Shown here one piece after another: positions 9,166-58,017 of a stretch of DNA of 64,000 bases. Both the position numbers and the translations under genes were made by a program. Source of the DNA: Candidatus Spyradenecus sp. (GTDB taxonomy: Bacteria > Verrucomicrobiota > Kiritimatiellia > RFP12 > DVOR01). Positions within the stretch are counted from its first letter, which is position 1; every line of letters begins with the position of its first letter. The notes under the pieces are model-generated. The model was not told where the DNA came from and ran no database searches. It saw only the letters and a list, made by a program, of their open reading frames with translations. The stretch covers positions 7,782 to 71,781 of the forward strand of contig JAZRAG010000075.1 of the NCBI GenBank assembly GCA_045634445.1, read 5' to 3'.

Positions 9166-9193
9166 CCCTAATCAACACCATAGGAAAAACATC

Positions 9194-26557: not shown

Positions 26558-26673
26558 TTGCGCAGTGATGAAATAAAATGCGTGCGGAGTGGGAAGGGCG
26601 TGAAGTAAAATAAGGATGTCCTCGCGGAGGTGTTGAGGATTGGTGTATGTTTAACAACAAAAGGAATGAACAG

Positions 26674-27042: not shown

Positions 27043-27067
27043 GCTAAAGGTTTGTTTTAAATTGTTG

Positions 27068-27113
27068 AAGGCGTCCTTGGGTAGTTCCTAAGGATGCCTT
27101 ATTTATATTTTTT
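27068..27113 (+). terminator. intrinsic terminator (11-bp stem aaggcgtcctt/aaggatgcctt + T-run)
   Basis: Inverted repeat with one G-U position followed by atttatatttttt. Confidence 0.6.
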
Positions 27114-27129
27114 AGTTCTTCAATACTTT

Positions 27130-27405
27130 GTACTCTATTTTTCCGGCCGTAACTTATTCATTTTTAATAACTTATTTTGAATATTTTATGGCCGGCAATT
27201 TTAAGCTTAAAATCAGTACAATTTGTACTATTCATGCAAAATTTAAACAGTACAATTTTTTGGGGGCAAGATATTTTAAGGGAAAATTTCCGCTCGGGAA
27301 GAAATCTTAAATAGTACAATTTTTTGCACGGGACTTTTTAGACCTGTCTAGAAAACTTTAGAAAATAGTACGAAGGACCGAAGAAGTGAAACAATAGGGT
27401 TGTGC
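27130..27405. repeat. non-coding direct repeat copy A (~275 bp; contains AGTACAATTTGTACT palindrome 27215-27229 and a 67-bp internal duplication)
   Basis: Aligns base-for-base with 29118-29327 (e.g. GTAACTTATTCATTT, TTTTATGGC, AAAATCAGTACAAT, TATTCATGCAAAATTTAAACAGTACAATTTT, CTGTCTAGAAAACTTT); the two overlapping ORFs are in different frames. Confidence 0.85.
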
Positions 27406-27423
27406 TATCATCATCGGCGTTTT

Positions 27424-27499
27424 CGGTCTCTAACTCAGTTGGTAGAGCACGACACTTTTAATGTTGGGGTCGCGGGTTCGTTCCCCGCGAGACCGGCCA
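27424..27499 (+). tRNA. tRNA-Lys (anticodon TTT)
   Basis: Cloverleaf: acceptor CGGTCTC/GAGACCG, D arm ACTCAGTTGGTAGAGC, anticodon loop CTTTTAA, T arm GCGGGTTCGTTCCCCGC, encoded CCA. Confidence 0.92.
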
Positions 27500-27506
27500 T
27501 CTTAAA

Positions 27507-27536
27507 CCTCTCAAACGCACGTTTGAGAGGTTTTTT
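27507..27536 (+). terminator. intrinsic terminator after tRNA-Lys (cctctcaaac/gtttgagagg + TTTTTT)
   Basis: Perfect 10-bp stem, 4-nt loop, 6 T. Confidence 0.8.
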
Positions 27537-27544
27537 GTTGCCCT

Positions 27545-27580
27545 AAAATAAAAAAATCACCAGCATTTGCTGGTGATTTT
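27545..27580. terminator. bidirectional hairpin atcaccagc/gctggtgat flanked by A-run and T-run
   Basis: 9-bp perfect stem; serves minus-strand gene 27635-28054. Confidence 0.65.
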
Positions 27581-27634
27581 CAATACATTAAATTTGACTA
27601 AAATAATGTATATGGTAAACTAGACGTTATCCCG

Positions 27635-28054
27635 TTAATCGGGAATCGCTGCATAGATTAGTAAAAATAGAAGGCCTAGAACGAAGCCAATTGAGCCTGT
27701 GATAATCCCAGACATCCCCTTTCCGCTTTTAACTTCAGCACATCCACATCCAATGCCTCCTGCGGAAAGAATCATTCCAAACCATGCAGTCCACGATAAC
27801 ACTAAGCCAAGAATACCAAGAACAAGTGCCAAAGTAGCTAAAATACTCGAGTTTTGGCTTCCTTCAAACTCTTGTCGAGGTACAACTAGGGGTGTTGTAT
27901 TGCCCGCTCCAAAAGTATTATAAATCTGAATTGGAGCATTTTGTTGTGAACGAGCTCGATGAAGCTCATTACCACACGCCATACAGAATTTATTCCCAGT
28001 TGATTGCTGCTTTCCACAGTGAGCGCAAAACATTTGTTCGTCAGTCATATCCAC
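27635..28054 (-). CDS. zinc-ribbon membrane protein (DUF4190-like: N-terminal CxxCG...CxxCG ribbon + two Gly-rich TM helices)
   Basis: FCAHCGKQQSTGNKFCMACG then TM hairpin ILATLALVLGILGLVLS / GIITGSIGFVLGLLFLLIY; lower GC than surroundings. Confidence 0.6.
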   Translation of the reverse strand: MDMTDEQMFCAHCGKQQSTGNKFCMACGNELHRARSQQNAPIQIYNTFGAGNTTPLVVPRQEFEGSQNSSILATLALVLGILGLVLSWTAWFGMILSAGGIGCGCAEVKSGKGMSGIITGSIGFVLGLLFLLIYAAIPD

Positions 28055-28729
28055 TTAATCTCTCCATTTAGCGTTAAATTCTTCATGCGACATCTGCCCA
28101 GAGGCGGCATCCACCGCATCTGTGACAACTGCTTGAATAATTATCCCCCAAAGAGCAATGGAAATCACCCACAAGAGGAACGATGTTACGGCAGGACCAT
28201 AATTTTTATTTGTGAGTTTTGCTCGTCTAAACAAATACCAATAAGGGAAAAGACACGACCGAATTCCGATTTCAGCCACTTCTTTTCTATACCCTGCCTT
28301 TTCTAATACTGCTTCATCTTTAAGCGTCAAAATGATTAATACAATTCCCGCACAAATGAAAGCTGCACCCCTCGACGAACTGATGATGCCCACCACATAC
28401 CAAACTATAATCGGCACAATCGCCAGTAACCATGCCCACTTATCCGTTAAGGGAAGCCGCTCTTTCGACTGTTGCGAGGTAGAACTTTTGAAGGCTTCGT
28501 TTTTAACTTTTACGCGCTTGCCAGACGGCAGCGTCACAATTTTATAGGGAGATTCCTGCGAAACACTTTCTTTTTGCAGTGTTTTAGTCTCAGCCACAAG
28601 CGACTCGGTTGTTGAATTATCCAAATGTGTCGGCACGCTCGGTTCAACTAACGACTCATGACTTTTTCCACATTTTGGGCAAAATCGAACTTGAGCTTGA
28701 AGTTCATTTCCACAGTTTGTACAAAACAT
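28055..28729 (-). CDS. zinc-ribbon membrane protein, unknown function
   Basis: MFCTNCGNEL...FCPKCG ribbon, then 3-4 TM helices; abuts the preceding gene with no gap. Confidence 0.55.
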   Translation of the reverse strand: MFCTNCGNELQAQVRFCPKCGKSHESLVEPSVPTHLDNSTTESLVAETKTLQKESVSQESPYKIVTLPSGKRVKVKNEAFKSSTSQQSKERLPLTDKWAWLLAIVPIIVWYVVGIISSSRGAAFICAGIVLIILTLKDEAVLEKAGYRKEVAEIGIRSCLFPYWYLFRRAKLTNKNYGPAVTSFLLWVISIALWGIIIQAVVTDAVDAASGQMSHEEFNAKWRD

Positions 28730-29117
28730 ACCATTTCCTTTCTTTTACTAGCAGTTTTCTTACTAAGCGAAAGGAACTCGTTTTATTTTACTGAGATAAA
28801 ATAAAGCGTGTTCTTCGCCCAATCATCTTCAGTAGAGGCCTACCACAGCCCGAGTGACGACAAGTGAACAGAGAACACGCTAGGAAATGAATCCTAACGC
28901 GCCTCCGCATTACAACTCGTTCACTCAGAGAAAAGTGGTAGTTTCTACTGAACAAATTGTTATGCGTTAACGCATCTTTTAGTACGTCTGAGAGGTGGCA
29001 AGAGGACGCATCACGTCATCGCCCCAATCAAACTATGTGATGGTAGTATAGACCTTTTTAGGATTTAATTCAATAAGAAATTATTGCCCATCACAAAGTA
29101 TTAATTCTTCATTATTC

Positions 29118-29327
29118 CGTACTATATTTGCCGAGTCGTAACTTATTCATTTACAATAACTTATCTTGAATATTTTATGGCAGGTAATTTTAGGCTTAAA
29201 ATCAGTACAATCAGTACTATTCATGCAAAATTTAAACAGTACAATTTTAGGCGGGGACTTTTTGGCCCTGTCTAGAAAACTTTGGAAAATAGTACGGAGG
29301 GCTGAAGAAATGAAACAAATGGGTTTG
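29118..29327. repeat. non-coding direct repeat copy B (~210 bp; AGTACAATCAGTACT palindrome 29203-29217)
   Basis: See copy A; same orientation, ~1.7 kb downstream, no tRNA after it. Confidence 0.85.
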
Positions 29328-29394
29328 CAAATGATTGACGGATTGGGGGCTATAAAGCGTTAAAAACAATGTGAAAAGAGATTACTTTTAAGGG

Positions 29395-29462
29395 GTTTTT
29401 GAAAACAAGCCTTTTTGCCTTTCAAAACAACCCTTTTTGATCTTGAAAAGAGGTTGTTTTGG
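29395..29462. repeat. copy of dispersed intergenic palindromic repeat family
   Basis: GAAAACAAGCCTTTTTG...CAAAACAACCCTTTTTGATCTTGAAAAGAGGTTGTTTTG imperfect palindrome. Confidence 0.7.
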
Positions 29463-29568
29463 GAGTCAATTTCAGCCTTTTCTAAAAACCGCTTAAAATC
29501 AAGCATTTAATGGCGCAGCGTTGAATGGATGCGCTCATGGTTGATGATGGGTGTAAAAGAGGGTTATG

Positions 29569-30489
29569 TTATGCGTCAAAGAGCCAGGTGGAGAGGTAGC
29601 GGTCGCCGCCGTCGGGGATGATGACGATGATGCGTTTGCCGGCGTAGGCTTCGTTGCGGGAGAGGTCGCGGGCTACTGAGAGGGCGGCGCCTGCTGAGAT
29701 GCCGACGAGTAAGCCATCGGTCTTGGCGATGGTACGCGCAGCTTCGCCAGCGGCTTCTGCGCTAACGGCGATGGCGCGTGTAATAAGGGCGGTGTCTAAG
29801 TTCTTGGGAATGAAGCCTGCGCCGATGCCTTGGAGTTTATGGGGGCCAGGGGTGCCACCACTGATAACGGGGGAGGTGTCTGGCTCTACAGCGATAACTT
29901 CGAGATTGGGATTCTTGGACTTAAGCACAGTCGCAATGCCCGAAAGGGTGCCACCAGTGCCAACGCCTGCGACTAAGACATCGACTTGGCCATCGGTGTC
30001 GCGCAGGAGCTCGTAGGCAGTCTGTTCGCGGTGGGCGGCGGGATTGGCTGGGTTTTCAAATTGTTGGGGAATCCAACTGCCTGGGTTGGCCGCTTGTAGG
30101 GCTTGGGCTTCTGCGATGGCGCCTGTCATGCCGCGTTCGCCTGGGGTGAGGACGAGTTCTGCACCATAGGCGGCAAGGAGCTTGCGGCGTTCGGCGCTCA
30201 TGGTTTCGGGCATGGTGAGGATGAGGCGATAGCCTTTAACGGCGGCGGCAAGGGCGAGGCCGATGCCTGTATTACCGCTAGTGGGTTCAATGATGAGGCC
30301 GCCAGGCGCGAGGAGTCCATCGCGTTCGGCGGCTTCAATCATGGCGAGGGCAACGCGGTCTTTGATGCTGCCACCGGGATTAAAGTATTCGACCTTGGCG
30401 AGGAGTTCTGCGTGGCCATCGTTGAATCGATTGAGGCGCACGAGAGGGGTGTTGCGGGCGGTCTCAAGGATGGTGTTGTAGATGGGCAT
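29569..30489 (-). CDS. cysK: cysteine synthase A (O-acetylserine sulfhydrylase)
   Basis: PLP-lysine region GGSIKDR, TSGNTG motif, GTGGT loop. Confidence 0.92.
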   Translation of the reverse strand: MPIYNTILETARNTPLVRLNRFNDGHAELLAKVEYFNPGGSIKDRVALAMIEAAERDGLLAPGGLIIEPTSGNTGIGLALAAAVKGYRLILTMPETMSAERRKLLAAYGAELVLTPGERGMTGAIAEAQALQAANPGSWIPQQFENPANPAAHREQTAYELLRDTDGQVDVLVAGVGTGGTLSGIATVLKSKNPNLEVIAVEPDTSPVISGGTPGPHKLQGIGAGFIPKNLDTALITRAIAVSAEAAGEAARTIAKTDGLLVGISAGAALSVARDLSRNEAYAGKRIIVIIPDGGDRYLSTWLFDA

Positions 30490-46551: not shown

Positions 46552-46580
46552 TTGACGGATGGCGAAAATAAGAATATACT
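46552..46580 (+). promoter_or_regulatory. candidate sigma70 promoter of the secretin/PilM operon (TTGACG-N17-TATACT)
   Basis: Consensus-like hexamers ~55 nt upstream of ATG 46633; GGAG RBS. Confidence 0.45.
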
Positions 46581-46632
46581 TTCTAACGTCAAATGGTTAA
46601 AGGGCGGGTGAAGCCCAGAAGGAGCCGTAAAA

Positions 46633-47457
46633 ATGAAGTCATGGATGATGGTTTTGTTAGCAGCACTTTGCGCTGGTACTGTAATGGCACAGAGCCGGAA
46701 TGGTAAGCAGAAGCAAGGCAAGTCAAAAAATAATGAGGCTGGCCAGTTCATTTCAATTAAGGAAATCTCTTCGGTGGGCGGTGAAAGCGATTACGCTGTG
46801 GAAGCTCCTACCACGGATGATAACTGGAAGAAGGTGAAGATCAACCACGTGGATTCCTACAAGAAGGAAGGCGCGAAGGGTTGGCACTTCTTTGAAGTTG
46901 CTTACGAAGTGGATAAGGTGGGCATTGATCCTGAGAAGAAGAAAACATTGCCGCTCTTTGTGTTGCCCGAAGTGGAAATTACCTACGCGCTCCTTTATGA
47001 TATGACCGAATCGAAGCACACCTCTTCGGTGAAATCGCAGGCGAACAAGGCTGGCGGTGCGATTGGTTGGGATAAGCCTGATCAGACGAATATTTTGTTC
47101 TCTGAAACAGTGGTTTACTCTCAAGTCACTCCTGGTCGTGTGCACTACGCAGCAGTGTGCGTCCCGCCGAATGCCGTTGTGCTTTACGGGAAACCCATCG
47201 TCTTCTCCGTGCAGATTAAGGTTGATGGAGTGCAGCAGGGCGAAATCGAAACGCAGTTCTTGGGCGGCAAGAAGATTGAAGGTAAGGAAATTACTTCCTT
47301 GTTAGTCGGCGCCAAGAAGGAAAAGATTGCTTGGTGGGAAACGATTCAGACAAAGTCTAAGACCGTGCAGAAGGTGGACAATGTGTTGCGTGACCGTTCG
47401 CAGACGCCCTTCGCATTGGTTGGCGATATGTACTATGACCAAGTGAAGGCTAAGTAA
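46633..47457 (+). CDS. secreted beta-rich protein, first gene of the pili-like cluster (positional analogue of Amuc_1102)
   Basis: Sec signal peptide MKSWMMVLLAALCAGTVMAQS; no TM thereafter. Confidence 0.6.
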   Translation: MKSWMMVLLAALCAGTVMAQSRNGKQKQGKSKNNEAGQFISIKEISSVGGESDYAVEAPTTDDNWKKVKINHVDSYKKEGAKGWHFFEVAYEVDKVGIDPEKKKTLPLFVLPEVEITYALLYDMTESKHTSSVKSQANKAGGAIGWDKPDQTNILFSETVVYSQVTPGRVHYAAVCVPPNAVVLYGKPIVFSVQIKVDGVQQGEIETQFLGGKKIEGKEITSLLVGAKKEKIAWWETIQTKSKTVQKVDNVLRDRSQTPFALVGDMYYDQVKAK

Positions 47458-47493
47458 GGTTTTCCCTAAGGATTTGAAACAGACGGATACTTT

Positions 47494-49179
47494 ATGGAAC
47501 GTATTTTAACACTTAATATCGGCGCGACGCGTCTTGCGCTTGCCGAGTTTGAGGTCAGGGCCGGTCGCGGCCCCGGCCTCTTGCGCTATGCTTTTGGCGA
47601 CTTGCCAGATGGTAGCACGGACAATCCAACCGCTTTTGCAATTGAAGTGGAGCAAGTCCTTCGTGGCATGATGGTGATGTCGGGCATTCGCCCCGGCCGC
47701 ATCCATGTGGCACTCTCTGGACAGATGGCATTCCCGCGCTTCATTAAGGTGCTTGCAGACAGTCCTGAAAAGATGGATGAACAAATCCGTTTCGAGCAGG
47801 AGCAGGCTGCACCCTTCCCCTTGACCGAAGCTATCTTCTCACACGCATTGGTCGGTGAGCCCGATGTCGGTGAACAGCATGTGATGATCATCGCTTCTCG
47901 TGAAGCGCTTGTTTCTTCCGTGACGCGTGCACTGTTGAATATGGGCTGCGAACCCGATGTGGTAGATGTTGCTCCGATTGCGCTCTACAACGCTGTGCGC
48001 TTTAACTATCCTGAAATGGATGGTTGCACCCTTGTTGTGGATATTGGTGCACGCTGCACAAACTTGGTCTTTGTGGAGCAGGATCGCATCTTCTATCGTT
48101 CGATTCCTGTCGCGGGCAATACGATTACTGCAGAAATCGCCAAGACCTTCGGTATCACCCCTGAAGAAGCTGAAGCCTTCAAGTGCGAACAGGGTATTGT
48201 GGCACAAGGTGGCGCATTTGCAGTAGATGATCCCGATGTGGACCGTCTCTCCAAGGTGATTCGTAATGTCATGACGCGTTTGAACGCAGAAGTGGCACGT
48301 TCAATCTCCTTCTATCGTAGCCAGCAGGGCGGTAGCGCACCCTCGCAGATGTTGCTCACAGGTGCCTCCTCGCAGTTGCCTTACATGCAGAACTTCTTTG
48401 AAGAAAAACTGCAGATTGCGGTTGACTTCTTGAACCCCTTCCAGACTGTGGCATTCCCCAAGCACGTGGATGCAGAACAGTTTGGCCATGACGCCTTCTC
48501 CTTGCCCGTATTGGTGGGCTTGGCCTTGCGTCGCGGCTTGACCTGCCCAGTGGAAATCAACTTGGTTTCCCAGGAAATCGTAAATCGCAAGATTTTCCGT
48601 CGTCGTTTGCCCTTCCTCGGCCTCGCAGCAGTGGGTATGGTCGCGACATTGGGCATTTGGTGGCTCTTTGTGAACAACCTCAAGAACTCTTACGAAACGC
48701 ATCAAGAAAACTTGGCATCTCGTATTAGTGACTATCAGGACCAAAAGGATCGTTACGATCGCGTAGATAAGAAGGCTAAGACTGCAGAAGCTCGTGCCGC
48801 CGCTTATCGTGCGTTGATGAAGCGCCGTGGTCAGTGGTTGGACATGATGGTGGCTATTGATGACGCCGTGCCCAATGGTCTCTGGGTGACAAGCATGAAG
48901 GCTCGTCGTCAAGACAACGTCTTACAGGGCGTGGACCTCACCGTTTCTGCTTGGAAGGATCTTGAGCCGCGTTTGGTAGAAAAGGGTAAAACCATCGCAG
49001 AAACCATTGCTAGCCGTCTTGCAACACAAGAAGTCTTCGTGGATGACGCAAAGGAAATCACAATCAGCAAAATCAATCAGAGCGTTGATTGGATGACCTC
49101 CTTTGACCTCACCGCTAAGCTTAAAGGTGTGGAAGAAGCAGCAGCTAAGACGAACAACAAGCGTCGCACCCGGAGGTAA
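47494..49179 (+). CDS. pilM: type IV pilus assembly protein PilM (actin-like ATPase fold) fused to a PilN-like TM + coiled-coil C-terminal region
   Basis: PilM pattern LNIGATRLALAE...VVDIGARCTNLVFVE...LTGASSQLP; TM FLGLAAVGMVATLGIWWLFVNNL at ~aa 385 followed by charged helical segment. Confidence 0.75.
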   Translation: MERILTLNIGATRLALAEFEVRAGRGPGLLRYAFGDLPDGSTDNPTAFAIEVEQVLRGMMVMSGIRPGRIHVALSGQMAFPRFIKVLADSPEKMDEQIRFEQEQAAPFPLTEAIFSHALVGEPDVGEQHVMIIASREALVSSVTRALLNMGCEPDVVDVAPIALYNAVRFNYPEMDGCTLVVDIGARCTNLVFVEQDRIFYRSIPVAGNTITAEIAKTFGITPEEAEAFKCEQGIVAQGGAFAVDDPDVDRLSKVIRNVMTRLNAEVARSISFYRSQQGGSAPSQMLLTGASSQLPYMQNFFEEKLQIAVDFLNPFQTVAFPKHVDAEQFGHDAFSLPVLVGLALRRGLTCPVEINLVSQEIVNRKIFRRRLPFLGLAAVGMVATLGIWWLFVNNLKNSYETHQENLASRISDYQDQKDRYDRVDKKAKTAEARAAAYRALMKRRGQWLDMMVAIDDAVPNGLWVTSMKARRQDNVLQGVDLTVSAWKDLEPRLVEKGKTIAETIASRLATQEVFVDDAKEITISKINQSVDWMTSFDLTAKLKGVEEAAAKTNNKRRTRR

Positions 49180-49186
49180 GTAATTT

Positions 49187-50287
49187 ATGGATCCTAAACA
49201 AAAACTCATCTTCGGAATTGTAGCAGGCGCTTGCACTGCTGCAATCATCGCGCTTGCAGCGTTGCTCTTTGGGCAAATCGGAGCGAAGAACGAAGCAAAA
49301 GAAGCGCGCGATAATGCCGCATCTGAAATTCGCGGCTACTACTCTGAAGCCATCTACCCTTCGAAGGCCAATCGTGATATCCGTGAACAGGATACGAAGA
49401 CCTACACTGAAGTGGCAGAAGCCGCACGAGCTTTACTCGCAAAGCCTTTGGAATATCCCAAGGGAGAATCCCCCTCGCAATTCGTGACGCGCGTGGCTGA
49501 CACCATTCACGCATTGGATGCGCGCAAGAATGCTTCCCGAGTGGAAATCTTTGATGGCATTGCCAAAAACAAGAATGCTACGCCCGCAGAGCAGGGGATG
49601 GATTACTCCTTCGGCCGCTATGTGCAGCAGGGTGAATTGCCTAAGGATACCGATGTGCCGCGTTTGGCTCATCAGTTCGCAGTGATTGAACACGTCTGCG
49701 ACATCCTTTTGGATGCAGGTGCATTGGACATCACCAAGGTCACACGTGAAATGTTCGACACCGCAGCAAAGCCTGTGCAAGAAGATAAGAATGCACGTCG
49801 CACGACGCGTCGCTCCAAGGCTAAGGAAGAACCTGTTGCAACCACAGGTGTGCAGCTCCCTGATGAACTCGCTAAGGATGGCGTCACCGCAGAGGCGTTC
49901 ACCATAACCTTCCGTGCGCAGTATGCAACCATCGCGAAAGTAATGAATACCTTGGCCAAGGATTCCCTCTTTGTCGTGGTAACGGATGTCTCCTTTAATA
50001 ATCCTATGGACTTGCGTACGCGTGTTGCCGACATGGTGAAGCGTCGTGAATCTGCTCGCGCGACCGCTGCACGTCGTAATCGCAATCGTGCCGCAGAAGA
50101 AAATGCAGAACCCGTTAAGGAAGTCGCACTCTTTGAAACTGCAGCACCTGCAGAGCGCTTGGTTACCGACCCCGAAAACGCGATGCCGATGGAAGTCTCC
50201 ATTTCGTTTGAAGTTTATTCGGTGCCTCCCGCTGAAGAGCCTGAAGCCGAAACCGCCGAAACCGATTCGGCCAAAACTGCAGAATAA
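49187..50287 (+). CDS. bitopic membrane protein, Amuc_1100-like / PilO-like
   Basis: N-terminal TM LIFGIVAGACTAAIIALAALLF; segment TFRAQYATIAKVMNTLAKDSLFVVVTDVSFNN resembles (from memory) Amuc_1100 AFQGDRESVLKAMNAITGMQDYLFTVNSIRIRN. Confidence 0.55.
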   Translation: MDPKQKLIFGIVAGACTAAIIALAALLFGQIGAKNEAKEARDNAASEIRGYYSEAIYPSKANRDIREQDTKTYTEVAEAARALLAKPLEYPKGESPSQFVTRVADTIHALDARKNASRVEIFDGIAKNKNATPAEQGMDYSFGRYVQQGELPKDTDVPRLAHQFAVIEHVCDILLDAGALDITKVTREMFDTAAKPVQEDKNARRTTRRSKAKEEPVATTGVQLPDELAKDGVTAEAFTITFRAQYATIAKVMNTLAKDSLFVVVTDVSFNNPMDLRTRVADMVKRRESARATAARRNRNRAAEENAEPVKEVALFETAAPAERLVTDPENAMPMEVSISFEVYSVPPAEEPEAETAETDSAKTAE

Positions 50288-50305
50288 GGAAGGAATCACG
50301 CAATT

Positions 50306-51445
50306 ATGGCAAACCAACTTCCTCCATTTTTAAAGCACTACGATCGCCTCGCCGCGGTCTTAGTCTTGGTGGCATTGTTGATCTCCCTCGCCTTCCTCGT
50401 GCTGAGGGGTGTTAGCCTCCAGCAAGAAGAGCGCGAATACGATGCAGACCTTGAAGCAGGTCAGCCCTCAACCTCTCAAGTGAAGCCTGCTGATAACGCA
50501 GCAGACCTCGCTTTGATTGCTGTGGTGGCAAATCCGCCCGCTGAAAAGTTGCTCGCACTTCAGGACAATCCTGAACTTGCAAACATGGGTACGCCTGAAC
50601 GCCGCTTGCTCTGCGTGAAGTGCACCAAGCCCATCGTTTGGGGTGCAGAAAAGTGCACCTTCTGCGCAGCCGTTCAGCCTAAGGAAGAAAAGATTGACCT
50701 CGCAGCGGTTGACTCCGATGGTGACGGCATTCCTGATATTGAAGAATTGAAGCTTAAGCTCAATCCGCAGGACGGCAATGACGTTGACTTGGATAATGAT
50801 GCCGACGGCTTCACGAATATTGAAGAATATTTGGCAAAGACCGATATGAACGATGCTGCAAGCCACCCTGGCTATGAAGGTCGTTTTGCATTGAAGTCAA
50901 TTGAAGGCACGAAGTTGCAAATTCGCGCAATCGATAAGATGCAGCTCCCCTCCACGAAGGATGCAGACGGAAAGAGTGTTTCTCACTACGCAGTCACCTT
51001 CGTTTCTGTGAATGCAGATGGTGTGATGGGTACCAATCCTGTTCGCGCTAAGGATGGCGAAGAAATTATGTCTAAGGCAGGCACCAGTACTGGTTATCGC
51101 TTTGTTCGCTACAACGAGCTTCCTAAGAAGAAGATTGAAGTTGGCGAACACAAGCAACAGCGCTTTGTTGACGTTTCGGAAGTTGAACTTGTGCGTGTGG
51201 CTGACAATAAGAAAATTGTCACCATTATGTATGACAAAAACAATCCCGAATGGCCTGGCGATCCGCTACTTGAACAGCGCGCAACTTTGGAATTTGACAT
51301 CCCTGGCGTGAAAAACGTGGTTGTTGCTCCTGGTGGTAAATTCACCGTAAAGGGCGAAAAATACACGGTTTTGAGCGTTGATGCCGAGAAAAAAGTCGTA
51401 ACCATTCAGAAAAATGCGACTGGCGCGAAATTTGACTTGAAATAA
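50306..51445 (+). CDS. bitopic membrane protein with zinc-ribbon and DxDxDG calcium-binding motifs (positional analogue of Amuc_1099; PilP-like role possible)
   Basis: TM LAAVLVLVALLISLAFLVL; CVKC...CTFC; DSDGDGIPDIEE and DLDNDADGFTNIEEY; beta-rich C-terminus. Confidence 0.55.
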   Translation: MANQLPPFLKHYDRLAAVLVLVALLISLAFLVLRGVSLQQEEREYDADLEAGQPSTSQVKPADNAADLALIAVVANPPAEKLLALQDNPELANMGTPERRLLCVKCTKPIVWGAEKCTFCAAVQPKEEKIDLAAVDSDGDGIPDIEELKLKLNPQDGNDVDLDNDADGFTNIEEYLAKTDMNDAASHPGYEGRFALKSIEGTKLQIRAIDKMQLPSTKDADGKSVSHYAVTFVSVNADGVMGTNPVRAKDGEEIMSKAGTSTGYRFVRYNELPKKKIEVGEHKQQRFVDVSEVELVRVADNKKIVTIMYDKNNPEWPGDPLLEQRATLEFDIPGVKNVVVAPGGKFTVKGEKYTVLSVDAEKKVVTIQKNATGAKFDLK

Positions 51446-51519
51446 TTCTTTTATTGGGTTATACTTACCTCACGATTTGGAATGGGTAAAGAGCCCAACT
51501 AACTGCGGAGAAACGTGTT

Positions 51520-54500
51520 ATGACACAATTTGTACGCTTTGCCATGATCGGCGCATTAGCCGCTGGGGCATCAGTATGCGCCATTGCGCAAGACGATGAC
51601 AGTCTTGACGCCCTCTTGGGGGACCTCGTAGAGGATGTCGCGATTGAAGAAGACGCTGTAGCTGTCGACGAAATCGCTGACGAACCTGCTGAAGAAGTCG
51701 CCGAAGTGCCTGCCGAAGAAGCAGTCGAAGAGGTCGCTGAAGAAGTTGCTGCCGTCGACGAAGATCCTATCGCAGATGAACCTGCAGAAGACGTCGCTGA
51801 AGTCCCCGCAGAAGAAGCGGTGGAAGAAGTTGCTGAAGTTGCAGATGAACCTGCTGAAGAGGTCGTGGAAGAAGTCGCCGAAGCAGACGAACCCGCAGCC
51901 GAAGTCGAAGAAGTGATCGCCGAAGCAGACGAGCCCGCAGAAGAAGTTGCGGAAGAAGTCGCTGAAGTTGAAGCTGACGCAGACGAAGCAGTCGAAGTGG
52001 TTGAAGTGGCAGACGAGCCCGCAGAAGAAGCTGTGGAAGAAGTCGCTGTCGCAGACATGGAAACTGAAATCAAAGAAATCGCGGAAGCTCCTGCAGACGA
52101 ACCCGCCGAAGGTTTGCTCGCTGGCGTCAACACCTCCGTTGAACCGATTGAAGAACTTACCGAAGAAGAACGCAAGTATAATGATCTTGCGCTCTTGATG
52201 GAACTCAAGAATCGTGGCTTGGATAACCATGCATATGCTTGCTTGGCTAAGGCTCGTGAATTGATGACCACGCCTCCGCAGCCTGGCAAGGCCTTCAATC
52301 AGTACGCTGATGCTATTAAGATGTATAAGGACGCTCAGGTTTACTTCCGTCAGCGCGAAGAAAACCTCCCTCTCCGCAATGAGTGTGACATCGGCATCCG
52401 CGAAGCTGAATATCGTCAGGCAAAGGTTCGCTTTGAAGAAGGTAACTTCGTTGAAGCTCTTGAAATGGCTCAGAATGTCCAGCTCAGCGGCCATCCTCAG
52501 GGCGCAGCTTTGATTGAAATCATTCAGGACGAAATGAATAAGCCGGTGGAAGTTCGCCCGAACCCCATCCTTCCTGAATACGCTAAGGAAGAATATCAGC
52601 GCAATCGTTTGGCCATTCAGGAACGTATGCGCCGTGCAACCGTTTACTTCCAGCTCGCTAAGTATCGTGAAGCAAACGATCAGTTGGAACTCATTCTCCG
52701 TGATGACCCCAACAATGAAGAAGCAATTAGCTTGCGTGCTCGCGTGAATCGTCGTCATGCAGATCGCAATCGTCAGTTGAAGTATTCCACACACGATGAA
52801 ATGATTAGCCAGGTGGAAGCTAACTGGACTCCCCTTGGTGCTCTCGCCCGCAACTCTGAAGAACTCTACGCTCCTGTAGAATCTAAGGGTGCCACCACGA
52901 AGGTGAACAAGGAGGGCGAAAAGGAAGAAGCAGTCGTGATGGCTAAGTTGCAGTACATCCGCTTGCCTGAATTCTCTATCCGTCCGCCGAGCACGCTCGC
53001 TGACGCAGTTGCGCTCTTCGCTGAACTCTCTAAGGATTACGACAAGCCCGAACTTCCTCCGGAAGAAAAGGGTATCGCTTTCGTGTTGAACATGGGCAAA
53101 AAGCCCGCGGCAGCTGCGGAAGAAACCGAAGATGATCCGTTCGCATCTGAATCGGAATCCTCCTCTGGCCTTCCTCCGATTGCCTCCATCTCCATGCCTT
53201 GGGTGACCCTCAAGGAAGCATTGGACATGGTTTGCGAAGTGACTGGCTCCAAGTACGTGATTAAGGGTAAAATCGTGATGATCGTTCCCGCAACACACGT
53301 TGACGGTATCATGGTCACGCGTTCCTATAACGTGATGGGCGGCTTGGTTGAAAAGCTCAGCCAAGTGAACAGTGAAATGGGTTCTTCTAGCGATGACAGC
53401 GATTGGGGTTCTGACTCCGAAAGTAGCTTCACTGCACCCTCTACCGACGCGGCATCCTTGAAGGCCTTCTTCACTGACCTCGGCGTGCCCTTTGATGGTG
53501 GTGCTCGAATCGCCTACTTGCCGACCATCGGTAAGCTCCGTGTTACAAATACTCCTGAAAACTTGGCAATCCTCGAAGGCGTCCTTGAAGACCTCAACGT
53601 GACTCCGTCTCAGATTGAAGTTGAAGCTCGCTTCGTTGAAGTAAGCCAGGAAGACTTGAACTCCCTCGGTTTTGAATGGGGCTTGAATGGTGACGTTGTT
53701 GGCACCATCGGTTCTGGTATCGACTGGGCTGACTCTGTGATTTCTGGCAATGCTAACCGTGGTCTCGCCGCAGGCGGTACTGGTGCAAATGGCAATGTCT
53801 TCCGCCCTGGACGCGGTGGCACGGGTGATGCAAACGTAGCTGTTCATGGTGGCTCTCTTAATAATGGTATGCGCTTCCTTGGCGATGGTAATGCATATGC
53901 AAATCGTATTAACCTCGCAGGTAGCACCATTGCTCCCGATGATACCTTTGCCAGCTTCTCCGCTGTCTTTGGTCGCGTGGACATGACGATGGTCCTCCAC
54001 ATGTTGGCTCAGCGCTCCGATACGGATATGCTCTCCAGCCCCAAGGTGCTCGCACGCCCTGGCCAGGAAGCACTCATCCGCGTGGTGACCGAACACATTT
54101 ATCCTACCGAATTCGATATTACCGAACTCGAAGAAGCTGAACAGAACTGGAACGGTAATAACGGTGGTAGCAGCCTTGCTGGAGGCTTGACCGGTGGCCT
54201 CATCGGTGGTAATAATGTGCAGATGAATGCACCGCCTGTGAAGTTCGCTGTTGAACCTCAGTCCTTCGAAAAGACGGACGTGGGTGTCTCCTTGCAGGTT
54301 GTCCCTGAACTTTCTCAGGAAGGTCAGATGATCAACATGTTGGTCAACCCCAAGGTTGTTGAATATCTCGGTGACTTTGACTACGGTATGAAGGTGCCTT
54401 ACATCCAGTACGGCATGACCGCAGGTGCAGTTTCTAGCGCTCAGGTTGAATACTACAACGTAGAAATGCCTCAGCCGAAGTTCCATGTTCGTGAAATCAA

Positions 54501-54786
54501 TACCTATATCTCTGTCTACAACGGCTCTACGGTTGTGATGGGTGGCTTGATTACCGAAACGCGTAAGTCCTTCGAAGATAAGGTTCCGTTCTTGGGTGAC
54601 CTTCCCTTCATTGGCTTCCTCTTCCGCTCTAAGGGCGAATTCAGCGAAAAGCGCAACCTCCTCGTCTTCCTTACCGCTCGTTTGGTTGACCCTGCAGGCC
54701 GCCCGTTGAAGACCGCTACCGATGGTCGTACAGGCAATGCTGCAATGGATACCGCAGCAGAAACCATGGACTCCATCGCAGAGTAA
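51520..54786 (+). CDS. pilQ: secretin (PilQ/GspD family), 1088 aa, with signal peptide, ~170-aa acidic repeat region, TPR-like helical region and Gly/Asn-rich insert
   Basis: C-terminal secretin domain (VPFLGDLPFIGFLFRSKGEFSEKRNLLVFLTARLVDPAGRP); signal MTQFVRFAMIGALAAGASVCAIAQ. Confidence 0.85.
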   Translation: MTQFVRFAMIGALAAGASVCAIAQDDDSLDALLGDLVEDVAIEEDAVAVDEIADEPAEEVAEVPAEEAVEEVAEEVAAVDEDPIADEPAEDVAEVPAEEAVEEVAEVADEPAEEVVEEVAEADEPAAEVEEVIAEADEPAEEVAEEVAEVEADADEAVEVVEVADEPAEEAVEEVAVADMETEIKEIAEAPADEPAEGLLAGVNTSVEPIEELTEEERKYNDLALLMELKNRGLDNHAYACLAKARELMTTPPQPGKAFNQYADAIKMYKDAQVYFRQREENLPLRNECDIGIREAEYRQAKVRFEEGNFVEALEMAQNVQLSGHPQGAALIEIIQDEMNKPVEVRPNPILPEYAKEEYQRNRLAIQERMRRATVYFQLAKYREANDQLELILRDDPNNEEAISLRARVNRRHADRNRQLKYSTHDEMISQVEANWTPLGALARNSEELYAPVESKGATTKVNKEGEKEEAVVMAKLQYIRLPEFSIRPPSTLADAVALFAELSKDYDKPELPPEEKGIAFVLNMGKKPAAAAEETEDDPFASESESSSGLPPIASISMPWVTLKEALDMVCEVTGSKYVIKGKIVMIVPATHVDGIMVTRSYNVMGGLVEKLSQVNSEMGSSSDDSDWGSDSESSFTAPSTDAASLKAFFTDLGVPFDGGARIAYLPTIGKLRVTNTPENLAILEGVLEDLNVTPSQIEVEARFVEVSQEDLNSLGFEWGLNGDVVGTIGSGIDWADSVISGNANRGLAAGGTGANGNVFRPGRGGTGDANVAVHGGSLNNGMRFLGDGNAYANRINLAGSTIAPDDTFASFSAVFGRVDMTMVLHMLAQRSDTDMLSSPKVLARPGQEALIRVVTEHIYPTEFDITELEEAEQNWNGNNGGSSLAGGLTGGLIGGNNVQMNAPPVKFAVEPQSFEKTDVGVSLQVVPELSQEGQMINMLVNPKVVEYLGDFDYGMKVPYIQYGMTAGAVSSAQVEYYNVEMPQPKFHVREINTYISVYNGSTVVMGGLITETRKSFEDKVPFLGDLPFIGFLFRSKGEFSEKRNLLVFLTARLVDPAGRPLKTATDGRTGNAAMDTAAETMDSIAE
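51640..52110 (+). repeat. degenerate in-frame tandem repeats encoding (A/V)EE(V/A)AE..DEPAEE units
   Basis: Repeated gaagaagtcgc / gacgaacctgc blocks; about 10 units of 14-18 codons. Confidence 0.7.
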
Positions 54787-54805
54787 GGTTGAGAAAACTA
54801 AAAGA

Positions 54806-54838
54806 AAACGCGGCATGAAAGTGCCGCGTTTCTTTTTA
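54806..54838 (+). terminator. intrinsic terminator of the secretin operon (aacgcggca/tgccgcgtt + TCTTTTTATT)
   Basis: 9-bp GC-rich stem, 6-nt loop, T-run. Confidence 0.8.
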
Positions 54839-55308
54839 TTAAAGACTTGGTTTGATATATCACACATTTAACTAGCAATAAAGCAGAGGATTGGAAACTG
54901 TTCGAATAGATTGAGATATGATAATTTTAAGAGAGACACAATCGTAGAGAAGGGCATAAAGTGTGATCTTTAATTATAGCCAGAGTTAAAAACATCTTTT
55001 AGAAGTGGGGTATATCGGAGTGGTTTGTGATAGAGAAGAGGGTATAAGAATAAAAGATTTCTAAGGTGTAGGTAACGCGGATAAATGTAGAAATCTTGGG
55101 TGTGAATCGTTACTGAATGTGGTAGTTAACACTGAAAGTTTGGCAACATTCTCGTAGTGATGTAATCTTTAAGGGATAACGAATATTGTGATGTCATTAA
55201 AGGAAATTTAAGCAGGGTTCTGTTAGGTGTTATTTATAAAAGAGGGGCACTCTTTAATTTTGCTATAAATAAAGCGTTAAATAAATTAAAGAAAGTTTAA
55301 AAAAGTAC

Positions 55309-55350: not shown

Positions 55351-55427
55351 CGGGCTGTTAGCTCAGTTGGTTAGAGCACTACCTTCACACGGTAGGGGTC
55401 GCTGGTTCGAGTCCAGCACAGCCCACC
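55351..55427 (+). tRNA. tRNA-Val (anticodon CAC)
   Basis: Acceptor GGGCTGT/ACAGCCC, D arm AGCTCAGTTGGTTAGAGC, anticodon loop TTCACAC, T arm CTGGTTCGAGTCCAG, encoded CCA. Confidence 0.9.
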
Positions 55428-55433
55428 ATAATT

Positions 55434-55468
55434 TATCCGGATAGGTCTTCCTATTCGGATTTTTTTGT
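55434..55468 (+). terminator. intrinsic terminator after tRNA-Val
   Basis: atccggatagg-tctt-cctattcggat + TTTTTTT. Confidence 0.8.
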
Positions 55469-55629: not shown

Positions 55630-55654
55630 TCACGGCAGCTTTAGGCTGCCGTGA
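55630..55654 (-). terminator. intrinsic terminator of minus-strand gene 55685-56278
   Basis: tcacggcagc/gctgccgtga 10-bp stem; A-run on plus 5' side gives U-tail on minus transcript. Confidence 0.7.
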
Positions 55655-55684: not shown

Positions 55685-56278
55685 TTAATCCTCTGGGTGA
55701 AGTTTGCGGAGTGCAGCTTCTGCGGCGTCTAGTTCGCGTGCAGGGAGGTTGTCAAAGCCAACAGGAGGATGGTTGCCGTTTTGTGATACGGTAGAGTAGG
55801 CAAAGTGGATGTCACCTGTCCCATTACGGCGTTCAATTCGGTCAATAAAGTTTATCTCGGGTGCTCGCCAAGACTTACGAAGAATACGCCCAAAGCAGAC
55901 AGCACGTTTGGTTGTAACTGCGTAGATTTGCCCAGTCATTGCAATACGCTTCCAGAGCGGCGCAAAGAGGGTCGCAATGCCAATCACAATAAACGGAACA
56001 AAGAATGCGCAGATACCAATCTTGAACCAAATAGAAATTGCGTCTGCAGTAGTTTTGACACCGTTTACAGTGATAGGCTCATTGGAATCGCCAAAGACGA
56101 CTTGGCTTAGAAAGATGGCGCATAGTGTTCCACTGATTGCGGACCAAGGGATGCCGAAGAGCATAGCTCCGATGGTTGCCTTGGAGAATGCGCGTGGGAT
56201 AGGCTTGGCACACCAGACAAGTTGCTCATTGACGTCAAGCTTGTTATGGATGCGTTGTGTTTCTTCGGGAGTAAGCAT
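55685..56278 (-). CDS. hypothetical membrane protein (two TM helices + C-terminal PH-like/YdbT-like domain)
   Basis: TM LFGIPWSAISGTLCAIFL and ICAFFVPFIVIGIATLF; no recognisable catalytic motif. Confidence 0.45.
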   Translation of the reverse strand: MLTPEETQRIHNKLDVNEQLVWCAKPIPRAFSKATIGAMLFGIPWSAISGTLCAIFLSQVVFGDSNEPITVNGVKTTADAISIWFKIGICAFFVPFIVIGIATLFAPLWKRIAMTGQIYAVTTKRAVCFGRILRKSWRAPEINFIDRIERRNGTGDIHFAYSTVSQNGNHPPVGFDNLPARELDAAEAALRKLHPED

Positions 56279-56361: not shown

Positions 56362-58017
56362 TTAGTGGCGGACTGGGCGGAACTTAATGCGCTTAGGTTT
56401 GTCAGCGTCATCGCCGAGTTCCTTACGGCGCATTTCGTGGTAGTCGGAGTAGGAGCCTTCAAACCAGCGGACCTTGGAGTCGCCTTCAAAGGCGAGAATG
56501 TGCGTAGCAATACGGTCAAGGAACCAACGGTCGTGGGAGACAACTACTGCGCAACCACCGAAATCTTGAATACCTTCTTCAAGCGAACGGAGTGTGCCAA
56601 CGTCAAGGTCGTTGGTCGGTTCGTCGAGGAGGAGAAGGTTACCGCCAGAGCGGAGGAGTTTTGCGAGGTGCACGCGGTTACGTTCACCGCCAGAGAGTAC
56701 GCCAACCTTCTTCTGTTGGTCGGTGCCCTTGAGGTTGAAACGAGAGCAGTAGGCGCGGCCATTCATCATGCCCTTGCCTGCGAGGTTGACGTAATCACCA
56801 CCGCCAGTGATTTCTTCATAGACCGTGTGGTTGGGGTCAAGCGCTTCACGAGACTGGTCAACGTAACTGAGAACAACGGTTTCACCGATGCGGAGTTCGC
56901 CTTCAGAGGGCTTTAATGCACCTGTAATTAACTTGAAGAGGGTGGTCTTACCTGCACCGTTCGCGCCGATTACGCCGACAATGCCACCGCGCGGAAGGTC
57001 AAAGTTGACATTTTCAAAGAGCACCTTGTCGCCAAAGGACATGGAGAGGTTCTTGGCCTGCACCACGAGATTGCCCAAACGGGGACCTGGCGGAATCTGA
57101 ATCTTGAGTTCTTCTTCGCGAGTGTCGACTTGTTGCGAGACGAGTTCTTCGTAACGTGCGAGACGTGCTTTACCCTTTGCACGACGACCAGAAGGATTGG
57201 TGTGAATCCATTCGAGTTCTTGCTGGATCATCTTCTTGCGGCTTTCGGCCTGCTTTGCCTGTGCGGCCATCATAGCTTGCTTTTGTTCAAGCCACTGTTC
57301 GTAGTTGCCCTTATAGGGATACGTACGACCAGCATCCATTTCAAGAATCCACTCGGTGACGTTGTTAAGGAAGTAACGGTCGTGGGTCACCACGATGAGC
57401 GTACCCTTAAACTTCTTTAAGAAGGCTTCAATCCATGCCACGGATTCGGCGTCAAGGTGGTTTGTGGGTTCGTCAAGGAGTAACACGTCTGGATTGGAGA
57501 TAAGCAAACGGCACATTGCAACACGGCGTTTTTCACCACCAGAAAGGACGCCTGCTTTGGTGTCGGGATCTGGGCAGCGGAGCGCTTCCATTGCCATTTC
57601 AACTTGGTGATCAAGGCTCCAGAGATCGTTGGCGTCAATGATTTCCTGAAGACGTGCCATTTCTTCTTCTGCACCAGGTTCATCTAAGCGGCAGCAGAGG
57701 TCTTCATATTTTTCCAACATTGCCTGTGCTTCTGCAACGCCTTCCATGACGCATTCTTGCACGGTCTTTTCGGGATCTAATTCAGGTTCCTGCGGAAGAT
57801 AGCCCACCTTGGTATTCTTGCCGACGTAGCAGGTGCCCATGTAGTCTTTGTCTAAACCTGCGAGAATGCGCAAGAGCGAGGATTTACCTGCACCATTGGC
57901 ACCGATTACGCCGATGTGTGCGCCATGGAAGAATGCGAGATTCACGTCATCAAGAATGACTTTCTTTTCGTGATGCTTAGTGACGTTTTGAAGGTTAAAG
58001 ACATATTCGCCTGCCAT
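56362..58017 (-). CDS. ettA: ABC-F ATPase, energy-dependent translational throttle EttA
   Basis: Two ABC domains with Walker [13 protein letters not shown] / [12 protein letters not shown], signature LSGGE, arm region; end-to-end similarity to E. coli EttA. Confidence 0.88.

Follow-up and report, generated by a model that had tools for sequence, protein, structure and literature searches.

The five-gene operon analysed here is, judged from its sequence, a diverged counterpart of an already known locus of Akkermansia, Amuc_1098-1102, now named MUL2. It is an operon of the pilMNOPQ type with one extra gene. A PilM-PilN protein, proteins of PilO and PilP/GspC fold and a secretin together point to a type IV filament machine, of which they would form the scaffold and the pore. 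We consider it probable that the five genes provide such a machine with the scaffold that spans the envelope and with the outer-membrane pore, the operon being the Amuc_1098-1102/MUL2 orthologue of a gut bacterium of Kiritimatiellia/Lentisphaeria type.

Operon layout and relation to the Akkermansia locus

The operon (46633-54786, + strand) lies in a window of 64 kb, by which we mean the whole stretch of DNA that was analysed. The ORF coordinates confirmed the five co-directional genes of the original prediction, with gaps of 36, 7, 18 and 74 bp (Table 1). The promoter scan was not significant by itself, with 13 promoter-like sites against 8.5 +/- 3 expected. The proposed TTGACG-N17-TATACT promoter was nevertheless upheld by conservation: both hexamers are invariant across five related loci, in which TCTTGACG, the TATACT box and the AAGGAGCC ribosome-binding site are unchanged while the flanking DNA has diverged. 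The intrinsic terminator was likewise recovered, as an 11-pair hairpin followed by a T-run.

Table 1. Coordinates of the operon and its features in the window
Feature	Position (nt)	Strand	Description
Sigma-70-type promoter TTGACG-N17-TATACT	46552..46580	+	about 50 nt 5' of first gene; score 10/12
p1, Sec-exported Amuc_1102-family (MUL2A-like) protein	46633..47457	+	274 aa; N-terminal signal peptide; without class-III pilin leader
p2 gene	47494..49179	+	561 aa
p2, cytoplasmic actin-like PilM domain	47494..48537	+	residues 1-348; Pfam PilM_2 4.4e-35; TIGR01175
p2, PilN module fused to PilM	48544..49179	+	residues 351-561; EINLV motif, TM helix, periplasmic domain
p2, EINLV motif of PilN module	48553-48567	+
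p2, transmembrane helix	48607-48675	+	residues 372-394; sole hydrophobic segment
p3, bitopic Amuc_1100-family protein, predicted PilO-type fold	49187..50287	+	366 aa; TM helix residues 5-34, coiled coil, double alpha-beta-beta core ~154-345
p4, bitopic Amuc_1099-family protein	50306..51445	+	379 aa; TM helix residues 11-40; beta-rich C-terminal region with predicted PilP/GspC 'HR'-type domain
p4, four-Cys zinc-ribbon-like knuckle			residues 103-120
p4, TSP3/DxDxDG calcium motifs			residues 133-183
p5, Amuc_1098-family secretin	51520..54786	+	1088 aa; signal peptide, acidic repeat tract ~25-200, TPR-like region ~258-420, periplasmic N domains
p5, secretin domain	54004-54690	+	residues 829-1057; Pfam Secretin 7.6e-29
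Intrinsic terminator	54806..54841	+	11-bp G+C-rich hairpin (54806-54831), then T-run

Gene order was surveyed in 80 of 506 matching genomes, and the order p1-p5 was kept in all 80 of these related PVC genomes wherever the contig was long enough. The complete genome OW818680.1 of the same lineage (locus L047) carries the operon, and the nearest match is Ca. Spyradenecus (86% PilMN identity). Relatives of the operon have already been annotated automatically with Amuc family names.

The products p1 to p5 match the NCBIfam families Amuc_1102, 1101, 1100, 1099 and 1098, respectively, which is the Akkermansia order. These five families, the Pfam family PF28028 (Amuc_1100) recorded for a protein identical to p3, the predicted fold of p3 and the family matches of p1 orthologues all support the earlier proposal of a strongly diverged orthologue. 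Four of the five family matches are under the NCBI equivalog cut-offs, so that functional equivalence to the Akkermansia proteins is not guaranteed. The two loci agree in the order and orientation of their five genes, in the fusion of PilM with PilN (the Amuc_1101 model has 608 positions and is matched up to 555) and in the N-terminal TPR region of the secretin (PMC4960237 for Akkermansia), and the p3 model can be superposed on crystal structures of Amuc_1100 (6KNY, 6LAD and 6LAF). However, identity between p3 and Amuc_1100 in the structural alignment is 11-12%, p1 carries clade-specific insertions, and p5 has an additional acidic repetitive tract of about 170 residues, which is limited to the closest clade. 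The host also differs: it belongs to a lineage labelled Kiritimatiellia/Lentisphaeria, not Verrucomicrobiales. The 'different verrucomicrobial lineage' of the original prediction is a different PVC lineage, verrucomicrobial only in the GTDB sense. Its statement that the mechanism is uncharacterised is out of date, since genetic work links MUL2 to mucin acquisition in Akkermansia, for which the locus is important (PMC13174399, PMC12418764, bioRxiv 10.64898/2025.12.30.696933).

Components of the predicted scaffold and pore

Sequence profiles place p1 in the Amuc_1102 family. Its own match to Amuc_1102_rel is under the cut-off (E=1.2e-3), and 29 of 32 p1 orthologues match the same model, with a best value of 1.3e-12. 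The gene always stands first in the operon. Members of the Amuc_1102 family are described in the literature as Ig-like in fold and related to an archaeal type IV pilin. The absence of pilins can therefore be claimed only in the sense of canonical class-III pilins.

The p2 sequence indicates a cytoplasmic PilM that leads, through the conserved motif at the N-terminus of PilN and a single transmembrane helix, into a periplasmic PilN domain. The first part scores above the curated cut-offs for Pfam PilM_2 (121.7 bits, cut-off 27) and TIGR01175 pilM (140.5 bits, cut-off 133), and it matches PilM of M. xanthus (3jc8, 1.4e-51) and T. thermophilus (2ych, 1.3e-44). The second part matches M. xanthus PilN (3jc8_Na, 2.3e-6 to 3.1e-6) from the PilN 'IRINLLP' N-terminus onward, in agreement with the PilM-PilN fusion proposed earlier. 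The match runs past the transmembrane helix (query residue 394) in 78 of the 80 loci; in the other two (L022 and L026) it ends earlier only because the contig ends there. Like p2, p3 and p4 each have a single hydrophobic segment.

The model of p3 shows an N-terminally anchored protein of the Amuc_1100 family with a predicted PilO-type fold. The profile match to Amuc_1100_fam (5.7e-19) spans residues 12-307, so the proposed likeness to Amuc_1100 is present but is not confined to the C-terminal block to which it had been assigned. In a Foldseek search with the AlphaFold model (pLDDT 78.8), the top 10 matches were all Amuc_1100 structures (E 4e-6, TM 0.69-0.79), and next came PilO structures, 2rjz (probability 0.99) and that of M. 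xanthus, as weak matches (E 0.014, TM about 0.5). Amuc_1100 itself resembles PilO/PilN (bioRxiv 10.64898/2025.12.30.696933; PMC13174399; PMC12418764). It is reported to be exposed at the cell surface of Akkermansia (PMC5332112), a location that does not sit well with a PilO role at the inner membrane.

From its model, p4 appears to be a membrane-anchored protein carrying a PilP/GspC-type domain. In known systems this domain touches the N0 domain of the secretin. Both motifs noticed earlier in p4 are conserved, the four-Cys motif in 68/68 orthologues and DxDxDG in 66/68. Sequence profiles from the operon gave no match to E. coli HofO or GspC, nor to the PDB chains of Amuc_1100/1102, and the PilO and PilP/GspC assignments of p3 and p4 are those of predicted folds only.

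Sequence profiles identify p5 as a secretin whose N-terminal part bears a TPR region. It exceeds the Pfam Secretin cut-off (100.9 bits against 27.5), and among NCBIfam models it matches Amuc_1098_fam (4.8e-119), GspD (TIGR02517, 4.3e-40) and PilQ (7.5e-30), with weak matches to HofQ models; the general, non-Amuc secretin matches are all under their cut-offs. Among PDB sequences, p5 is closest to PilQ 6w6m (1.6e-17) and GspD 6i1x (3.7e-17). The AMIN domain is typical of PilQ, and no Pfam match to it was found in p5.

Pilins, motor and alternative readings

The operon resembles the type IVa pilMNOPQ operons of P. aeruginosa, M. xanthus and Neisseria and hofMNOPQ of E. coli in the order of cytoplasmic PilM, bitopic PilN, bitopic PilO, secretin-binding PilP and secretin PilQ, with PilM and PilN recognized by sequence profile and PilO and PilP by predicted fold. 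It also resembles them in standing alone amid housekeeping genes, away from pilin and ATPase genes. Unlike in those systems, PilM and PilN form one polypeptide, the putative PilP equivalent is not a lipoprotein but is anchored by a transmembrane helix and bears a zinc-ribbon-like knuckle and calcium-binding TSP3 motifs, the secretin carries TPR repeats and is without a Pfam AMIN-domain match, and an Amuc_1102-like gene heads the operon.

The original prediction regarded the five proteins as a 'minimal trans-envelope conduit', a channel that works without pilins, PilB/PilT ATPase, PilC or PilD and displays or exports something, perhaps p1 or p3. We consider this improbable. The absence on which it was built is real, with pilin taken to mean a canonical class-III pilin: a six-frame scan of the 64 kb window found no class-III signal peptide or T2SSE Walker box, and tblastn of the window with E. 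coli HofB/GspE, HofC/GspF, GspO and PpdD/GspG-K gave no match. Across 1.14 Mb around the 80 related operons, neither an ATPase nor a platform protein nor a peptidase turned up, and the sole pilin-like gene was unlinked. The module is always accompanied by p1, and in Akkermansia both Amuc_1100 and Amuc_1102 are reported to be surface or 'pili-like' proteins (PMC5332112; Xiang 2021, by its title as given in PMC13275887). However, a pilMNOPQ operon normally lies apart from the genes for pilins and ATPase, as in E. coli, where hofMNOPQ lies between aroK and mrcA, 3.4 Mb from ppdD-hofB-hofC; the absence is therefore uninformative and is no evidence for such a conduit. The operon encodes no energy source for transport, and the only role known for PilM, established in type IVa pili, is to couple the scaffold to a cytoplasmic motor and platform. 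One relative (L015) has a class-III pilin-like gene 3.6 kb past the secretin, with unrelated genes between. In Akkermansia, pilins (Amuc_1523-24, 1583, 0394, 0745) are encoded away from MUL2 (bioRxiv 10.64898/2025.12.30.696933; PMC13174399; PMC12418764), as are pseudopilins, and some of these proteins are required in vivo (bioRxiv 10.64898/2025.12.30.696933).

A type II secretion system would read p2 to p5 as GspL-, GspM-, GspC- and GspD-like proteins exporting folded glycoside hydrolases, with the pseudopilus encoded elsewhere. This is unlikely, though less so than the conduit. The PilM-PilN fusion shares its domain architecture with GspL, p5 scores slightly better against GspD than PilQ models, and the L015 pilin-like gene is closer to GspG than to PpdD. 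However, p2 retains type IV pilus family membership by passing the curated PilM models, its C-terminal half matches PilN and not GspL, tblastn gave no match to GspL or GspM, p3 resembles PilO and not GspM in the PDB, and no sequence similarity to GspC was seen. The secretin scores are themselves under the general cut-offs. Classical gsp operons are contiguous, whereas gspE, F, G-K and O are not adjacent here, and the Akkermansia phenotype is in mucin uptake or acquisition and not a secretion defect (PMC12418764). A role in DNA uptake (competence), which has been proposed for hofMNOPQ of E. coli and pilMNOPQ of Thermus and Neisseria, is very improbable: the gene content does parallel hofMNOPQ, annotated 'DNA utilization', and p5 matches HofQ models weakly, but no com genes are linked to the operon, the Amuc_1102-like gene and TPR-bearing secretin occur specifically in the MUL2-type locus of PVC bacteria, and the Akkermansia phenotype concerns mucin.

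In the type IV filament machine that we favor, PilN and PilO would pair in the inner membrane and p4 would bridge them to the secretin. PilM would dock an unlinked motor ATPase and platform protein, which may polymerise class-III pilins or pseudopilins whose genes lie at other sites of the genome. Such a machine would most likely serve the capture or uptake of, or attachment to, complex host or fucose-rich glycans. This glycan-uptake role is proposed purely by analogy with Akkermansia MUL2 and in view of the GH89 and GH95 genes, both of which are present in the window.

Architecture of the operon

The five-gene operon (products p1 to p5, in gene order) is of pilMNOPQ type, with an additional gene in front. 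An Amuc_1102-like protein (p1) is followed by a PilM-PilN fusion (p2), a PilO-like protein of the Amuc_1100 family (p3), a predicted PilP/GspC-like protein of the Amuc_1099 family (p4) and a PilQ-type secretin of the Amuc_1098 family (p5). The original prediction had placed five co-directional ORFs here; their coordinates and the gaps of 36, 7, 18 and 74 bp between them, from p1 to p5, were reproduced, and a hairpin terminator was found downstream, as had been proposed.

The proposed promoter, TTGACG-N17-TATACT, could not be accepted from the promoter scan on its own, in which 13 promoter-like sites, with 8.5 +/- 3 expected, were no significant excess. It was borne out by an alignment with four related loci, in which the -35 box (TCTTGACG), -10 box (TATACT) and ribosome-binding site (AAGGAGCC) stay unchanged amid diverged DNA. 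Downstream of the -10 box lies CGTCAA, which together with the -35 TTGACG makes a perfect inverted repeat around that box (46552-46600), and this palindrome accounts for a minus-strand "promoter" in the scan. Related loci keep a TTGAC...GTCAA core, followed by a block GTCAATATGGT.A.AGG. The inverted repeat could be an operator for some regulator.

Two antisense ORFs were rejected. One, of 1098 aa, spans the whole secretin gene (51571-54867, minus strand) and was picked over it by a longest-ORF gene caller; we regard it as a shadow ORF. The other, rich in Ser/Ala (51465-52298, minus strand), is taken as a shadow of the GAA/GCA-rich acidic repeats of the p5 gene.

Features of the operon and of other parts of the window
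Feature	Position	Strand	Basis or remark
Promoter-like TTGACG-N17-TATACT	46552-46580	+	Promoter scan and alignment with related loci
p1 gene	46633-47457	+	ORF
p2 gene	47494-49179	+	ORF
p3 gene	49187-50287	+	ORF
p4 gene	50306-51445	+	ORF
p5 gene	51520-54786	+	ORF
Hairpin terminator of operon	54806-54831	+	
tRNA gene	27424-27496		Inside low-GC stretch
Small zinc-ribbon protein, low GC3	27635-28048	-	Low-GC stretch
Small zinc-ribbon protein, low GC3	28055-28729	-	Low-GC stretch
Short ORF, no family match	55685-56278	-	Alone between downstream tRNA/terminators and ABC-F gene
ABC-F ATPase gene	56362-58017		

Family assignment of the five products

NCBIfam holds one curated model for each of the Akkermansia proteins Amuc_1098-1102, and the bit scores of p1 to p5 were compared with the equivalog cut-offs of these models. 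Along the plus strand the matches run 1102-1101-1100-1099-1098, with E-values of 1e-18 to 1e-124 for p2 to p5. Only p4 passes its cut-off. Since the other four products score below theirs, the operon is a diverged orthologue of the Akkermansia muciniphila Amuc_1098-1102 locus (MUL2) and not a near copy. Homology is thus supported, with sequence scores short of strict equivalog status, and the five families in Akkermansia order agree with the strongly diverged orthologue that had been predicted.

NCBIfam matches of the five products
Product	Model	E-value	Score and equivalog cut-off (bits)
p1	Amuc_1102_rel	1.2e-3	18.5 vs 55
p2	Amuc_1101_fam	5e-124	415 vs 650
p3	Amuc_1100_fam	5.7e-19	68.7 vs 180
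p4	Amuc_1099_fam	2e-18	67 vs 50
p5	Amuc_1098_fam	4.8e-119	398.7 vs 750

The original prediction expected PilM, PilN-like and secretin profiles in Pfam. The PilM and secretin matches were obtained, and the Pfam PilN model gave no match to p2. The PilM identity of p2 is secure, with curated cut-offs passed for both PilM_2 (PF11104, 121.7 bits) and TIGR01175 (140.5 against 133). Over residues 4-347 a family profile matched PilM from M. xanthus (1.4e-51), T. thermophilus and P. aeruginosa, and the C-terminal part of p2 matched M. xanthus PilN (2.3e-6 to 3.1e-6). The latter alignment starts at the N-terminal "IRINLLP" of PilN, which corresponds to an "EINLV" motif right after the PilM domain that is nearly invariant in the p2 family. 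It is followed by the one hydrophobic segment of p2, a transmembrane helix at residues 372-394. Because a PilM match, a PilN match and a single hydrophobic segment follow one another in this way, p2 is a natural PilM-PilN fusion. Its C-terminal half also gave a weak in-register match to E. coli HofN (E 0.0016, probability 16%). No relationship was found by hhalign between the PilN-like half of p2 and the p3 family, so PilN/PilO paralogy is not visible at the sequence level.

The proposed resemblance of p3 to Amuc_1100 was confirmed by NCBIfam, by the Pfam family PF28028 "Amuc_1100" (recorded for a sequence identical to p3) and by structure comparison. An alignment-based AlphaFold model (pLDDT 78.8) has an N-terminal membrane helix, a long coiled coil and a double alpha-beta-beta core. 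When this model was compared with the PDB by Foldseek, the ten best matches were Amuc_1100 crystal structures (E 4e-6, probability 1.0, target TM 0.69-0.79), and the next four were PilO of P. aeruginosa and M. xanthus (2rjz, E 0.014, probability 0.99; 3jc8_Oa, probability 0.96), a likeness at the level of fold. No match of p3 to E. coli HofO, nor any other sequence-level link to PilO, was found. [quoted passage not shown]

The match of p1 to Amuc_1102_rel is weak by itself; it gains support from the orthologues of p1, of which 29 of 32 match the same model (best 1.3e-12). Insertions in p1 are a lineage-specific feature. A profile of the p1 orthologues reached no chain in the PDB, including that of Amuc_1102 (7DSZ, an Ig-like fold). 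Likewise, the Amuc_1100 chains were not retrieved with p3 in single-sequence or profile searches of the PDB. The links of p1 and p3 to Amuc_1102 and Amuc_1100 rest on the NCBIfam and Pfam models and on fold comparison.

For p4, and for the Amuc_1099 family as a whole, a PilP/GspC-type secretin adaptor is predicted at the level of fold; p4 gave no sequence match to E. coli GspC. A four-Cys, zinc-ribbon-like knuckle lies at residues 103-120 of p4 (window 50612-50665) and is kept, with CxxC or Cx4C spacing, in all 68 of 68 orthologues. Since it follows the single transmembrane helix, it is predicted to be periplasmic, which would be an unusual place for a zinc ribbon.

The secretin identity predicted for p5 was verified with PF00263 (7.6e-29). 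In the PDB search p5 is about equally near the solved PilQ and GspD secretins (~1e-17). Directly after its signal peptide lies an acidic tract of ~170 residues (p5 ~25-200, window 51592-52119), which is 40-46% Asp/Glu, almost without Lys/Arg, and encoded by degenerate DNA tandem repeats with periods of 42, 84 and 96. Strong acidity of this tract is confined to the closest (Spyradenecus-like) clade, and the N-termini of more distant orthologues, though about as long, are not acidic. The acidic repeat tract is a lineage-specific feature.

Probable pilus-type scaffold and its alternatives

[quoted passage not shown] The PilM part of p2 may dock an unlinked PilB/GspE-type ATPase and PilC/GspF platform, which would in turn polymerise class-III (pseudo)pilins through the secretin. 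The operon differs from the type IVa pilus module in the fusion of its PilM-like and PilN-like parts in one protein, and p5 differs from PilQ in having a TPR-like region (weak signals at residues ~366-411) in place of an AMIN domain, for which no match was found.

The main rival is a type II secretion system. In its favour, p4 is anchored in a GspC-like way, the p2 fusion is built like GspL, and p5 scores slightly better with GspD. However, the affinities of p2 and p3 are with PilM, PilN and PilO, and the operon lacks the contiguous gspC-O set of type II secretion: no such operon (GspE, GspF, GspG-K, GspO) was found in the window, where the secretin was the sole tblastn match to E. coli Gsp proteins.

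The original prediction further held that no pilin, ATPase, PilC or prepilin peptidase is encoded in the 64 kb and read the locus as a minimal trans-envelope conduit. The absence itself stood. Neither a class-III leader nor a T2SSE Walker box turned up when the window was scanned for motifs in all six frames, and tblastn with E. coli HofB, GspE, HofC, GspF, GspO, PpdD and GspG-K gave nothing there apart from a trivial match to the P-loop of the ABC-F ATPase. Run against the 1.14 Mb of the 80 related loci, these queries picked up the secretins and, besides them, a single GspG-like gene, which in its locus (L015) lies 3.6 kb beyond the secretin with unrelated genes between. As evidence for a conduit, however, this absence carries little weight, because hofMNOPQ of E. 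coli K-12 lies between aroK and mrcA at 3.52 Mb, far from ppdD-hofB-hofC at 0.115 Mb, and pilMNOPQ is likewise apart from the pilin and ATPase genes in P. aeruginosa and Neisseria.

It seems improbable to us that the MUL2-type module is instead an ancient, PVC-wide machine for glycan capture or import, of another kind than classical type IV pili, in which p1, as a Sec-exported, Ig-like protein of the Amuc_1102 family, rather than a class-III pilin passes through or decorates the TPR-bearing secretin and the scaffold gates the uptake of large glycans into the periplasm. The gating scaffold would then be formed by the fused PilM-N, the PilO and the zinc-and-calcium-binding PilP-like parts. Such a machine would account for the constant grouping of the five genes in the 80 genomes examined, and for the lack there of any linkage to pilins or ATPases.

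The pilMNOPQ-type reading, taken part by part, makes the Amuc_1100 family PilO-like inner-membrane scaffold parts and not pilins, and gives the Amuc_1099 family a predicted role as PilP/GspC-type adaptor. Amuc_1100 and its neighbours have been heavily studied as host-active "postbiotic" proteins, and their machine is poorly defined. In papers that cite the genetic work on Akkermansia, its MUL2 locus is described as important for mucin acquisition (PMC13174399, PMC12418764, bioRxiv 10.64898/2025.12.30.696933), and marine Akkermansiaceae have been proposed to attach to fucose-rich glycans via the MUL2 cluster (PMC13174399, PMC12418764). By analogy, the operon may serve glycan or mucin acquisition.

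Distribution and genomic surroundings

Scanning a single genome for each GTDB species gave 506 stretches that encode a relative of the p2 fusion, and the order p1-p2-p3-p4-p5 is kept in the best 80 of the 506 matches wherever the contig is long enough. One of these loci (L047) lies on a complete chromosome, OW818680.1; the closest genomes are JAZUPT01 and JAFYWN01. The nearest sequences are animal-gut MAGs labelled Kiritimatiellae, Lentisphaeraceae or Ca. Spyradenecus, with PilMN identity up to 86%; NCBI taxonomy places Spyradenecus under Lentisphaerota. On some relatives PGAP gives the names "Amuc_1100 family pilus-like protein" and "Amuc_1099 family pilus-like system protein".

Public labels are inconsistent among contigs with a near-identical operon architecture (L005-L081) and include Kiritimatiellae, Lentisphaeraceae, "Akkermansia sp.", "Akkermansia muciniphila" (L054, PilMN identity just 44%) and "Agathobacter rectalis" (L010). 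This probably reflects automatic MAG naming or mis-binning, and taxonomic surveys by such labels would be misleading.

The locus type is already known, and no new kind of system is revealed here. It was described in 2016-2017 (PMC4960237, PMC5332112); crystal structures of Amuc_1100 and Amuc_1102 and curated NCBIfam and Pfam families exist, and a genetic phenotype of MUL2 is reported for Akkermansia (PMC13174399, PMC12418764). A 2026 synteny survey covered Akkermansiaceae, Verrucomicrobiales, Chthoniobacterales and Methylacidiphilales, and the same paper called the Amuc_1099 family uncharacterised (PMC13174399). Our search of the literature for pili in Kiritimatiellia found nothing relevant. 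New here are a diverged member of the module in a Kiritimatiellia/Lentisphaeria-type gut lineage, its strict synteny in the related genomes examined and the predicted, fold-level assignment of the Amuc_1099 family as PilP/GspC-type adaptors. With its order unchanged, the five-gene module reaches well beyond Akkermansiaceae and Verrucomicrobiales, into gut and environmental lineages labelled Kiritimatiellia/Lentisphaeria. The PilO-like reading of the Amuc_1100 family and the adaptor role predicted for the Amuc_1099 family are gains at the level of annotation, and they provide a broad comparative set for structural work.

Elsewhere in the window, a GH89 alpha-N-acetylglucosaminidase (1993-4476, plus strand; NAGLU domains 2e-85) and a GH95 fucosidase-type glycoside hydrolase (23999-26497, minus strand; 1e-104) are encoded. 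Their activities, on host mucin-type or fucosylated glycans, fit a glycan forager. A stretch at ~26000-30000 has a GC content of 0.445-0.453 against ~0.52 elsewhere in the window, and may be a small integrated element beside a tRNA. At 55352-55460 and 55630-55654, just downstream of the operon, lie another tRNA gene and, after it, hairpin terminators. A TolB-like gene (PD40 beta-propeller) and a Pal-like gene (OmpA domain) stand side by side at 7924-9760, and TatA/TatC-like genes appear to come next (9865-11042), as judged from the starts of the translated sequences.
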